Part shown: piece after piece, positions 1,609-4,805 of the stretch | Layout: each line of letters starts with the position of its first letter | How positions within the stretch are numbered: the stretch's first letter is position 1 | Source: Escherichia coli 042 | Lineage (GTDB): Bacteria > Pseudomonadota > Gammaproteobacteria > Enterobacterales > Enterobacteriaceae | Direction: 5' to 3' (one strand) | Length of the DNA stretch: 64,000 nt | Assembly (NCBI RefSeq): GCF_000027125.1 | Contig: NC_017626.1 | Made by a program: the position numbers and the translations under genes | Notes under the pieces: model-generated | Seen by the model: the letters and a program-made list of their open reading frames with translations, nothing else | What the model was told of the DNA's origin: nothing | Database searches by the model: none

Positions 1609-3287
1609 CAAAATATCAGGGATATGACGTAACAGATGCCACCCATAAAACCAGTATTCATAATGACTGGAAAGTTGTTGTTGCAAAGAAAAAACCGGCG
1701 CGGGGTGTGACTTTAACTATTGGCATATTTTTCGATGGTACCGGAAACAATCGGGAGAATACAGCATCTCGCCTGATGAAATTTAATGAGTGTAGTGCAG
1801 CCAGACAGGGGGTAAATCAAAAAGATGCACAAAGCTGTGAGGACTTTCTTAAAGAAATTAACAAGAACAGTATCTCGAATGGCAGTTATCGTGGATATTA
1901 TTCCAATATTCACTGGCTTAATATACTCTATCATCCAGATCAGGTACTTAAAAAAGACCAGACGTCAGCTCAAATTAAGACTTACATTTCCGGGATAGGG
2001 ACTGCGGCTGGTGAAGCAGATTCAGTCATAGGCATGGGATTAGGCACCAGTATTCTGGATATATTTGAAGGTGTGGTGACGAAAACCGACGAGGCAATGG
2101 AACGAATCACCCAGGCGTTATCAGAATTTATGGGGTTCAATTTAAGTCCTGATTTTTGTATCGCAAAAATCCAGTTTGATGTTTTTGGTTTTAGCCGGGG
2201 AGCAGCGGCGGCAAGGCACTTTGCCAATCGGGTTATGGAACAGGATCCTGCTATAGCCAGAGCTATTGCTAAAGGGCTCAGAGGCGATTTTTATGATGGT
2301 AAACCTTCTGGTGAAGTACGTTTTCTGGGGCTTTTTGATACTGTCGCAGCTATTGGTGGAATCAGTAATTTCTTCGATATTAATGGACGTAGCAACCCGG
2401 GAGTAAAGCTGGAGTTGCGTCCTTCAGTCGCGAAGAAAGTTTTCCAGATTACTGCAATGAATGAATACCGATATAATTTCAGCCTGAACAGTATTAAAGG
2501 TATGTGGCCCGAACTGGCTTTACCGGGGGCGCATTCAGATATTGGAGGTGGTTACAATCCGGTAGGTTCACCTCTGCAGGAAAATGAAAGTCTGTTTCTG
2601 AGTTGCCCGGAATTTGAAATTGTCAGTGACGATACCAGAGAAATGGATACGCGAGTATACCGTAAAGCAGAGCAAGTCAGAAAAATGTTGATGACTCTGC
2701 CAGCCTTAAAACATATTTTGCCTCATGGAAAACTAACCACCAAAATTCGTTCCATAGGTGTGAACAACAGCAATCAACGTCGGGCTGGTGTGATACAAAA
2801 GCAGGTGGGAGCCGCAGTATTTTTTGAGCGTATGGCAGTACCTAATGACTGGGCTAATGTTTGCCTGCGTGTGATGCTGGATGCTGCTCAGGAAGCAGGG
2901 GTATTGTTTGAACCAATTCGACAAACAAATACTGAGTTACAACTTCCATCTGAACTAATATTTCTTGCTGACAAAGCCATTGCTCAGGGAAAAGCGGTAC
3001 GTTTGGGGCAAGAGCCTCAGGCTTTTACTGAGGAAGAGTTGTATATTATCGGAAAATACACCCATTGTTCCGCTAACTGGAATATTGAGTCTGATGGTAA
3101 TTTATGGGTGGATCCTACAACGGGAGAGATTTTTATCCATCGCTTTGGTCCTAAAGGTAATAAGGCGTTCGTTTTTCCGAATAAACCAAATGATCGCTGG
3201 ATTCGTTCTGTATGGTACATGGATGATCAGCAGCGATTGAATGATAACGCAGTAAAAAATACTAAAGTTATGATGTCTGGTGTTTAA
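1605..3287 (+). CDS. tle1: T6SS phospholipase effector, DUF2235 / Tle1 family
   Basis: 560 aa; N-terminal GIFFDGTGNN block and GFSRG (GxSxG) serine-hydrolase motif characteristic of DUF2235 Tle1 effectors; sits directly after vgrG and before lipoprotein immunity genes. Confidence 0.75.
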   Translation: MTKYQGYDVTDATHKTSIHNDWKVVVAKKKPARGVTLTIGIFFDGTGNNRENTASRLMKFNECSAARQGVNQKDAQSCEDFLKEINKNSISNGSYRGYYSNIHWLNILYHPDQVLKKDQTSAQIKTYISGIGTAAGEADSVIGMGLGTSILDIFEGVVTKTDEAMERITQALSEFMGFNLSPDFCIAKIQFDVFGFSRGAAAARHFANRVMEQDPAIARAIAKGLRGDFYDGKPSGEVRFLGLFDTVAAIGGISNFFDINGRSNPGVKLELRPSVAKKVFQITAMNEYRYNFSLNSIKGMWPELALPGAHSDIGGGYNPVGSPLQENESLFLSCPEFEIVSDDTREMDTRVYRKAEQVRKMLMTLPALKHILPHGKLTTKIRSIGVNNSNQRRAGVIQKQVGAAVFFERMAVPNDWANVCLRVMLDAAQEAGVLFEPIRQTNTELQLPSELIFLADKAIAQGKAVRLGQEPQAFTEEELYIIGKYTHCSANWNIESDGNLWVDPTTGEIFIHRFGPKGNKAFVFPNKPNDRWIRSVWYMDDQQRLNDNAVKNTKVMMSGV

Positions 3288-3306
3288 CGCTACAGGATGA
3301 CAATAC

Positions 3307-3984
3307 ATGACCAGAGATAAAATCATTTTTATCGCACCATTATTGGCATTGTTAACTGGGTGTAATTCGGTTAGCTCACGGTATGCTGATTTGGATAAGA
3401 CTGAATGGGGTTATAAAAAATTACCCTATGATGAATGGAAATTTCTCTTTATTTATCCAAAGGCTCTGCCTGCGCTGGCCACCCAGGCGTTGATGGTGGA
3501 CGGGGAAGGTTATAAGACGACTTATCAGTATCTTGATAATACCGAGCCGAGTCAGGTCAGTGTAGGGCGCTGGAATGACCATCTGGGCGCGACTGAGTCG
3601 TATTATAACAAGGGGAAAGCATTACCCCTGATGTTGCGTTTTTGCTGGGATTCAATAATTGATAAAAAGAGTTATGAAACTCTGATTTTTTTTAAAAAAG
3701 GGACCTGGGAGCAGATGGTTACGCCTTACGCAGACAACCGCTGGAACGAAACCTATTATCGTTCAACGATGATTATTGGTCTGGCTCCTGAAGGGAAGGT
3801 AAGAGTCTGGCTGGGAGATCGCGGTAATCCGGTGGTACCTCAGTTGGATGCTAAAATTACTACAGTATCGGGTGATAAAATGAAGATGTGTAAGGGGGTT
3901 ACTAAAAGTGATTTCTCATATGGATATGATGAAGATATTAAGGAGTTTATCAGAGATAAAACTTATCCTTACGGTAACTGGTGA
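3307..3984 (+). CDS. Tli-type lipoprotein immunity protein, copy 1
   Basis: 225 aa; signal peptide with lipobox LLTGC; directly downstream of the Tle1-like effector; tandem paralog at 4128-4805. Confidence 0.6.
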   Translation: MTRDKIIFIAPLLALLTGCNSVSSRYADLDKTEWGYKKLPYDEWKFLFIYPKALPALATQALMVDGEGYKTTYQYLDNTEPSQVSVGRWNDHLGATESYYNKGKALPLMLRFCWDSIIDKKSYETLIFFKKGTWEQMVTPYADNRWNETYYRSTMIIGLAPEGKVRVWLGDRGNPVVPQLDAKITTVSGDKMKMCKGVTKSDFSYGYDEDIKEFIRDKTYPYGNW

Positions 3985-4127
3985 CTCAAACCAGAATAAT
4001 GATGAGCATATAAAAAGAAAATCTAATTTTCATCTGGCGTAAAAAAACGGGCAATAGCTGAATGATAACGCAGTAAAAAATACTAAAGTTATGATGTCTG
4101 GTGTTTAACGCTACAGGATGACAATAC

Positions 4128-4805
4128 ATGACCAGAGATAAAATCATTTTTATCGCACCATTATTGGCATTGTTAACTGGGTGTAATTCGGTTAGCTCAC
4201 GGTATGCTGATTTGGATAAGACTGAATGGGGTTATAAAAAATTACCCTATGATGAATGGAAATTTCTCTTTATTTATCCAAAGGCTCTGCCTGCGCTGGC
4301 CACCCAGGCGTTGATGGTGGACGGGGAAGGTTATAAGACGACTTATCAGTATCTTGATAATACCGAGCCGAGTCAGGTCAGTGTAGGGCGCTGGAATGAC
4401 CATCTGGGCGCGACTGAGTCGTATTATAACAAGGGGAAAGCATTACCCCTGATGTTGCGTTTTTGCTGGGATTCAATAATTGATAAAAAGAGTTATGAAA
4501 CTCTGATTTTTTTTAAAAAAGGGACCTGGGAGCAGATGGTTACGCCTTACGCAGACAACCGCTGGAACGAAACCTATTATCGTTCAACGATGATTATTGG
4601 TCTGGCTCCTGAAGGGAAGGTAAGAGTCTGGCTGGGAGATCGCGGTAATCCGGTGGTACCTCAGTTGGATGCTAAAATTACTACAGTATCGGGTGATAAA
4701 ATGAAGATGTGTAAGGGGGTTACTAAACATCCAGATGGATATGTTTATTACGGTGATACACCAGATTTTATCAAAGGGAAAATTTATCCCTACGGCAACT
4801 GGTGA
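4128..4805 (+). CDS. Tli-type lipoprotein immunity protein, copy 2 (divergent C-terminus)
   Basis: 225 aa; identical to copy 1 for the first ~203 residues, then a different C-terminal ~22 residues; same lipobox. Confidence 0.6.
   Translation: MTRDKIIFIAPLLALLTGCNSVSSRYADLDKTEWGYKKLPYDEWKFLFIYPKALPALATQALMVDGEGYKTTYQYLDNTEPSQVSVGRWNDHLGATESYYNKGKALPLMLRFCWDSIIDKKSYETLIFFKKGTWEQMVTPYADNRWNETYYRSTMIIGLAPEGKVRVWLGDRGNPVVPQLDAKITTVSGDKMKMCKGVTKHPDGYVYYGDTPDFIKGKIYPYGNW

Follow-up and report, generated by a model that had tools for sequence, protein, structure and literature searches.

Why does a bacterium keep two copies of one immunity gene behind a single effector gene, the copies being identical over most of their length and different only toward the 3′ end? 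The question is raised by a 64,000-nt stretch of the Escherichia coli 042 genome (contig NC_017626.1; the whole stretch analyzed is called the window below), in which a type VI secretion system (T6SS) phospholipase effector gene, tle1, is followed in tandem by two copies of its immunity gene, tli1. An original prediction made from the bare sequence attributed this arrangement to recent duplication plus recombination at the 3′ end. Comparison with other genomes points instead to an old array of variable copy number, in which two short segments of Tli1, an internal patch and a C-terminal tail, probably set specificity, copy 1 being the cognate partner of the window's Tle1 and copy 2 an orphan directed against another Tle1 allele.

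The duplication itself is already known: it has been published and is annotated as an enteroaggregative E. coli (EAEC)-type locus, and orphan immunity arrays are also a known kind of structure. It is given for EAEC 042 as EC042_4535/4536 (quoted in PMC7245790; PMC13133936). EC042_4535 alone protects against Tle1-EAEC, binding it 1:1 and inhibiting its phospholipase A1 activity (PMC7245790), and binding and inhibition of Tle1 by the copies in the window are predicted from that protein. The system, gene order and RefSeq names are those of the EAEC Sci-1 Tle1/Tli1 pair (Flaugnatti et al. 2016, as quoted in PMC7245790, PMC6730261 and PMC13133936). One of these papers describes the second gene as truncated in the EAEC strain under study (PMC13133936), whereas both are intact in the window.

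Results

As a whole, vgrG-tle1-tli1-tli1-PAAR forms a known segment of the E. coli T6SS-1 (Sci-1) cluster, with every part from vgrG to PAAR on the plus (+) strand. The effector gene tle1 (1605..3287) encodes a 560-aa protein that was identified by its open reading frame (ORF), by a full-length match to PDB 6SJL/6SKI (1290 bits for 6SJL chain D) and by its RefSeq name, T6SS effector phospholipase Tle1-EAEC. Its translation contains a GFSRG lipase motif (GxSxG), and PF09994 is recorded for homologues. Both tli1 genes, copy 1 at 3307..3984 (RefSeq WP_000196359.1) and copy 2 at 4128..4805 (WP_000196358.1), are intact ORFs for 225-aa products that RefSeq names 'Tli1-EAEC'. Pfam DUF2931 (PF11153) spans residues 37-223 of copy 1 (E=1.4e-27), and copy 2 has the same residues 1-200. 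The two are, as had been expected, tandem Tli immunity genes downstream of tle1. Each copy has the lipobox LLALLTGC, with a weak match to LPAM_1 (E=0.02), and the products are predicted outer-membrane lipoproteins.

Ungapped, base-by-base comparison of 3238-3906 with 4059-4727 gave 669 nt with 0 mismatches at a period of 821, an exact repeat far beyond chance. The tandem unit of about 821 bp at 3238 and 4059 that had been proposed by eye is therefore real. Leftward, the repeat stops at 3238 (base 3237 differs from base 4058), 50 nt upstream of the end of tle1. It takes in the 15 last sense codons and the stop of tle1, crosses 19 nt of intergenic sequence and continues for 600 nt (200 codons) into tli1. 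Repeat unit 1 (3238..4058, 821 bp) thus comprises the 50 nt of tle1 and the intergenic sequence, followed by copy 1 of tli1 with a 74-nt trailer. The pairwise DNA comparison also confirmed that divergence is limited to the 3′ end, the first mismatch falling at 3907/4728. The two proteins are identical over exactly 200 residues, a little short of the 203 or so that had been estimated. Divergence of the 3′ end is abrupt, as predicted, but it is not complete. Identity collapses for some 60 nt (8/20 and then 10/20 in the first two 20-nt blocks) and recovers to 16/20 and 18/20 across the last six codons and beyond (FI..K.YPYGNW, stop, CTCAAA). The C-terminal 25 residues align without gaps and share 12 of 25 positions. 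Beyond CTCAAA the flanks of the two copies are unrelated, and the repeat units are unlike over their last 152 nt.

To place the locus in the species, the 3.5-kb segment was searched by megablast against 5,426 complete E. coli genomes. It was 100% identical in at least nine independent complete genomes, and on these identical loci RefSeq labels one gene Vgr family protein, the next 'T6SS effector phospholipase Tle1-EAEC', two genes 'Tli1-EAEC' and the last PAAR protein. The locus is carried by 42 complete genomes, with two tli1 copies in 29, one in nine and three in four; the finished genome of strain 55989 is among the 33 of 42 with two- or three-copy arrays. The one- and three-copy states are as expected from unequal crossing-over between 669-bp direct repeats. 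We fetched 22 E. coli loci and analyzed 19 in detail, and the loci of lineages with the array differ by up to 4%. Over the first 600 nt of tli1, copies within a genome differ by 0-11 nt (0 in six genomes), and between genomes the differences reach 18 nt. Paralogues within a genome are closer than orthologues between genomes, as is characteristic of concerted evolution. Since within-genome differences are smaller and the bodies of the genes cluster by genome, the perfect 669-bp identity is best explained by within-genome homogenization. Judged by these comparisons, the tli1 bodies appear to be under concerted evolution and not recent.

The tails do not follow the bodies in this. E. coli tails fall into two types, S (SDFSYGYDEDIKEFI[RK]DKTYPYGNW) and H (HPDGYVYYGDTPDFIKGKIYPYGNW). 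In the window, the tail cassette of copy 1 (residues 201-220; 3907..3966) is of S type, SDFSYGYDEDIKEFIRDKT, and that of copy 2 (residues 201-220; 4728..4787) is of H type, HPDGYVYYGDTPDFIKGKI. E. coli arrays have the tail orders S,H; H,S; H,H; and H,H,S, as well as single S and single H. The same 74-nt trailer follows every non-terminal copy and the PAAR leader follows every terminal copy, so that tail order varies while the trailers stay fixed by position, which makes the tail a position-independent cassette. Identical Tli1 protein accessions swap array position between strains.

Homologues of Tli1 with 66-82% identity occur in many Enterobacterales, and we examined 18 further loci, with L020-L025 located in a genome scan and L097-L108 by exact-protein look-ups. 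Homologous arrays were found in Buttiauxella, Serratia, Yersinia, Enterobacter, Cedecea, Erwinia, Klebsiella and Tatumella, and the non-E. coli loci with tle1 have the gene order vgrG-tle1-tli1(x1-6)-PAAR. Copy number thus varies from one to three in E. coli and from one to six in related genera, in keeping with the immunity array that had been proposed. Homologue tails are of three discrete types, S, H and F, where F is [ND]FPNGYGYTKGTKAFIEGKTYPYGxW; across genera they are 80-100% identical within a type and 25-55% identical between types. The bodies (residues 30-199), by comparison, group by genome and not by tail type, with identities of 100% in E. coli, 99% in Buttiauxella, 99% for Cedecea copies 2 and 3, and 91% in Pseudenterobacter. 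Identical bodies with a switched tail have thus arisen repeatedly. Shorter remnants of the tle1 3′ end (last codons plus intergenic region) precede downstream copies in Serratia, Yersinia, Enterobacter and Cedecea, and a single tli1 stands beside an intact tle1 in S. proteamaculans, Erwinia sp. QL-Z3 and Pantoea sp. B9002.

Several of these loci are unusual in themselves. Serratia plymuthica (LR134478.1; L098 5267-9575) has six tandem tli1 genes after one tle1, with tails H,F,F,F,F,S and three patch types. In Leclercia adecarboxylata (CP040889.1; L100) and Yersinia massiliensis (L104), vgrG and tle1 are separated by a Lipase_3-domain effector gene that is followed by a downstream gene of its own. 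The Leclercia tle1 is 5′-truncated (327 aa), yet three tli genes follow it. This arrangement looks like effector displacement with retention of the immunity genes. The Kosakonia sp. H02 locus (CP131915.1; L108 5006-6678) lacks tle1 and has two DUF2931 genes (H-like and S tails, the first called as a 326-aa product) beside PAAR; it may be a vestige of the module in which only immunity genes are left.

The variation in E. coli Tle1 lies mainly in two segments, A (residues 107-125; 1923..1979 in the window, type a1) and B (residues 436-455; 2910..2969, type s, EPIRQTNTELQLPSELIFLA). Each has two haplotypes in E. coli, which assort independently, and three across genera. The type of segment B tracks the tail of the first tli1 in 15 of 15 multi-copy E. 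coli loci: Tle1 with EPIRQTNTELQLPSEL is followed by an S-tailed first copy and Tle1 with APIDPKNPDMNLSPEL by an H-tailed one. Across genera, a third segment B type, IQExxExYxLPxELKVxC, goes with an F-tailed first copy. Among the non-E. coli loci whose tle1 is full-length, L102 is the sole case in which the first tail does not fit the segment B type.

A mutual-information scan of all Tle1 columns against all columns of the adjacent Tli1, corrected by average product and based on 30 non-redundant pairs, yielded top-ranking pairs that fall into two groups and no others: Tle1 107-125 with Tli1 78-80, and Tle1 439-455 with Tli1 201-213. The former identifies the Tli1 patch (residues 77-83), which reads DNTEPSQ, type a1, in both copies of the window (3535..3555 and 4356..4376). 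At this site, LY.PDQ..AQIKT in Tle1 goes with DNTEPS in Tli1 (a1), LY.ADQTL..AQIQT with D[TA]TRPS (a2) and LYKP[ND]Q.. with DxTESSD (a3). All nine combinations of a1, a2 or a3 with s, h or f are present among Tle1 homologues. When distinct architectures are counted, the adjacent tli1 fits Tle1 at site A in 27 of 27, at site B in 24 of 27 and at both in 24 of 27; the maximum in 100,000 permutation runs was 12, a figure that overstates independence, as the loci are related by descent. Among downstream copies, only five of 31 fit their own Tle1 at both sites and the other 26 differ at one or both.

Two E. coli loci separate the coupled sites from their surroundings. L005 combines Tle1 a2,s with the tails S,H, and L011 combines Tle1 a2,h with the tails H,S. 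Over 3694 nt there are 103 differences between them, and 84 of these fall in three islands: Tle1 segment B, tail 1 and tail 2. The 900 nt between segment B and tail 1 hold only two differences, and the coupled sites are therefore not one linked block. VgrG was considered as an alternative partner of the Tle1 variable segments and rejected, because its C-terminal columns showed no covariation with them approaching that seen with Tli1. Within the window, copy 1 fits the type of the resident Tle1 at both co-varying sites. The type of copy 2 (a1 patch, H tail) stands first beside an (a1,h) Tle1 in L003, L007, L008, L010, L012, L013, L015 and L017.

Other features of the locus

The window begins inside vgrG, the 3′ part of which (1..1608; ORF 73-1608) encodes the T6SS-1 spike and is labeled 'type VI secretion system Vgr family protein' in strain BR1220. 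Because 25.1 kb of the window match BR1220 with two mismatches, the T6SS-1 (Sci-1) annotation of that strain applies here. Copy 1 is followed by a 68-nt, AT-rich spacer (3991..4058), which occurs after every non-terminal tli1 copy in E. coli; in other genera only about 44 nt separate the copies. In comparison of the spacer with upstream tle1, 365 of 500 shuffles scored at least as high, and no other match to it was found within the window. Copy 2 is preceded by the repeated last 50 nt of tle1 (4059-4108), an effector 3′ remnant, together with the 19-nt intergenic region and its ribosome-binding site (4059..4127 in all). A promoter and terminator scan of 3100-5000 found sites no more numerous than in shuffled sequence and none in the inter-copy region; the tli1 copies are presumably co-transcribed with tle1. 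No NCBIfam model matched Tle1 or either Tli1, so the RefSeq names must have a source other than the models of this NCBIfam library.

The array is bounded downstream by the PAAR-domain spike-tip gene (4837..5103), recognized by its ORF and RefSeq name; the NCBIfam PAAR domain match of its product falls below the family cut-off. A single T6SS-1 PAAR gene has been placed downstream of tli1 (PMC10715212). Between PAAR and tssM lies a 382-aa ORF (5107-6255) with predicted membrane-like N-terminal segments and no NCBIfam match, labeled 'hypothetical' and, in one RefSeq genome, 'KPHS_23130 family T6SS system protein'. Farther on, at about 16420-21440 (by identity to BR1220; L114 34816-39833), genes for a GIY-YIG nuclease and a 3′-5′ exonuclease lie downstream of tssE, and beyond them are T6SS gene fragments (ImpA N-terminal, VasL) annotated as pseudogene remnants.

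Structural models were built with AlphaFold2. For Tli1 alone, the beta-sandwich body was modeled confidently and the tail was poorly ordered (predicted local distance difference test, pLDDT, 41-56). In a fused Tle1-linker-Tli1 model of modest quality, Tle1 436-448 and 109-120 are coils beside helices. A sequence search of the PDB returned no solved relative of Tli1-EAEC, no structure of a Tle1-Tli1 complex was found, and when the Tli1 model was compared with the PDB by Foldseek, no hit had an E value below 0.1. The AlphaFold3 interface of Pseudomonas aeruginosa Tli1a was set aside as not transferable, since Tli1a belongs to DUF3304 and not DUF2931.

Discussion

The two tli1 genes belong to an old array of variable copy number. 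We hypothesize that tail and patch set specificity, with copy 1 (a1,S) as the cognate inhibitor and copy 2 (a1,H) as an orphan against (a1,h) Tle1. On balance we consider this the probable explanation. Arrays of this kind would be built, as has been suggested for Vibrio cholerae (PMC5361080), by register-shifted recombination of effector-immunity modules, of which the tle1 3′ remnant in each repeated unit may be the signature. Unequal crossing-over between the 669-bp repeats would then resize the array to one, two or three copies, and gene conversion or unequal exchange would keep the tli1 bodies alike within a genome. The tail cassette of about 60 nt and the 3-codon patch would escape homogenization, protected by selection or by sequence heterology. 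In the proposed scheme, the Tli1 tail (residues 201-219; S, H or F) pairs with Tle1 436-455 (s, h or f) and the Tli1 patch (residues 77-83, three types) with Tle1 107-125 (a1, a2 or a3). Copy 1, with its a1 patch and S tail, would inhibit the window's own Tle1 (a1,s) and so protect sister cells, and copy 2, with its a1 patch and H tail, would guard against the (a1,h) Tle1 of other E. coli. A target of that type would account for the tail being the sole part in which copy 2 has to depart from copy 1. Copy 2 also has the attributes of an orphan immunity gene as described in other arrays: it follows copy 1 and not tle1, it resembles the cognate gene of other strains, and an effector 3′ remnant lies upstream of it. 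Its protective role against a non-kin effector variant is suggested by covariation. Whether a two-site recognition code of about 3 x 3 types, with up to nine compatibility classes and with arrays that collect cassette variants, holds for Enterobacterales Tle1/Tli1 as a whole is in our judgement evenly poised.

A number of observations weigh against this explanation. Some of the covariation between closely linked sites may be due to joint inheritance, and the loci are related by phylogeny. In three of the nine single-copy E. coli genomes, representing two lineages, the tail is unlike the type of its own Tle1. Recombination inside the long 5′ repeat would be expected to leave such mismatched single copies by deletion. 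One of these genomes, strain 48 (L113, NZ_CP166879.1), has a single S-tailed tli1 beside an h-type Tle1 and an apparently intact T6SS-1, which argues for some cross-protection or a silent system. Another, E. coli MLI121 (L112 34066-35404, NZ_CP117016.1), has a frameshifted tssK, with a 1-nt insertion at nt 337 relative to BR1220 that lies outside any homopolymer run; this would be consistent with a dead system in which losing cognate immunity is tolerated. The copy that matches fully in Enterobacter genomosp. S (L102) stands second, not first. Five downstream copies repeat the cognate type, as in the H,H arrays L009 and L019, so that extra copies are not in all cases orphans of a different class. 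The second gene is dispensable in the EAEC strain for which PMC13133936 states that it is truncated. The fused structural model lends little help, with a pLDDT of 66.8 and a predicted template modeling score of 0.69 from a partly paired 144-row alignment; its tail pLDDT values (53/65/55) are barely higher than those of Tli1 alone (56/53/41).

Several of these points would fit redundant immunity, in which both copies block the same Tle1 to the same degree as dosage or back-up, the tails are interchangeable, and their association with Tle1 results from linkage or hitch-hiking in exchanged modules. The same Tle1 is found with either tail in single-copy strains (L002 versus L001, and L016), a mismatched tail accompanies an apparently intact T6SS in strain 48, H,H arrays occur, and the first gene alone is enough in EAEC. 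Yet the tails are conserved within a type across genera as much as the bodies or more (80-100%) and are discrete between types, which indicates purifying selection on each tail type. The association survives both the homogenized 900 nt between the coupled sites and the independent assortment of the two Tle1 segments, and the 26 of 31 downstream copies that depart from the cognate type at one or both sites are not expected of dosage duplicates. We therefore regard redundancy as a possible but doubtful explanation.

The origin that was first proposed for the repeat, a recent tandem duplication in this strain followed by recombination that replaced one 3′ end, accounts well for 669 identical base pairs with a sharp boundary, but it did not survive comparison with other genomes and is very improbable. 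The array, with both tails, is present in E. coli lineages that differ by up to 4% and in other genera, where the tail types are conserved. The 74 nt after copy 1 are not found after copy 2, so the unit ends were never identical, and identical bodies recur among genomes whose bodies differ by 5-11 nt, which points to homogenization. A joint requirement for both Tli1 proteins in self-protection has a precedent in Tli1/Tli2 of Aeromonas hydrophila NJ-35, which needs both DUF2931 proteins (PMC7245790). It is highly unlikely here, given the nine E. coli genomes, S. proteamaculans, Erwinia sp. QL-Z3 and Pantoea sp. B9002 with a single tli1 and an intact tle1, and given the protection and 1:1 inhibition by EC042_4535 alone (PMC7245790). 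As for a repeat falsely expanded in assembly, the general risk that attends exact repeats is all that speaks for it, and we give it practically no credence: the two-copy structure occurs in 29 complete genomes from independent projects and the three-copy structure in four, and each unit has a conserved 3′ end and flanks of its own, unlike those of the other. Recent strain-specific duplication, obligatory two-protein immunity and assembly artefact were accordingly rejected on population, cross-genus and single-copy evidence, and the older, variable array with a cognate and an orphan copy is the explanation that we retain.

Related systems help to define what is particular to this one. Rhs and contact-dependent inhibition (CDI) orphan modules keep a toxin 3′ fragment together with an immunity gene, and colicin DNases and their immunity (Im) proteins show 'dual recognition', in which a conserved surface gives affinity and a small variable patch gives specificity. 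Unlike Rhs and CDI toxins, Tle1 is a cargo effector with internal variable segments and no polymorphic C-terminal toxin domain; the likeness to colicin-Im pairs is mechanistic only. Tandem DUF2931 immunity genes beside tle1 have been reported in other bacteria (PMC13133936, PMC7245790). In V. cholerae, orphan immunity arrays have been proposed to result from recombination that retains old immunity genes and to have a role against non-kin effectors (PMC5361080). As in those arrays, the extra genes here lie downstream of the effector-immunity pair and resemble the cognates of other strains (Kirchberger et al. 2017, PMC5361080), and the downstream copies here come after remnants of the effector 3′ end. 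The V. cholerae arrays, however, combine unrelated immunity families for unrelated effectors, whereas the genes here are near-identical paralogues (100% over 200 residues) whose array members differ only in one or two short cassettes, as the effector alleles do only in two short segments. Closer in kind are V. cholerae Tli1tox- and Tli1tox+, two DUF2931 proteins of about 80% identity that differ in protection against Tle1Vc (PMC10395195). There too a DUF2931 protein confers immunity to a Tle1-family lipase, and small differences within the family can set specificity. In that pair, by contrast, the responsible residues are unmapped, the genes belong to different strains or clusters, and there is no homogenized tandem array (PMC10395195). 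The EAEC Tle1/Tli1 literature searched, in which the primary papers are represented by papers that quote them, yielded no tail types, copy-number polymorphism or covariation with Tle1 segments. Three conserved tail types, homogenized bodies and two-site Tle1 covariation were likewise not found in the searchable literature.

Conclusions

The specificity of a T6SS lipase-immunity pair appears to sit in two very short exchangeable segments per partner, and the immunity arrays look like catalogues of such segments on a homogenized scaffold. If this is true, the covarying sites provide a testable map of the Tle1-Tli1 interface, and the presence of one to six near-identical tli genes in enterobacterial T6SS-1 clusters would be explained. 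A typing scheme of a1/a2/a3 by s/h/f would predict which strains kill which. An exchange of about 60 nt could re-arm a strain or immunize it against a rival allele, and copy 2 of the window would provide protection in advance from the other E. coli Tle1 allele.

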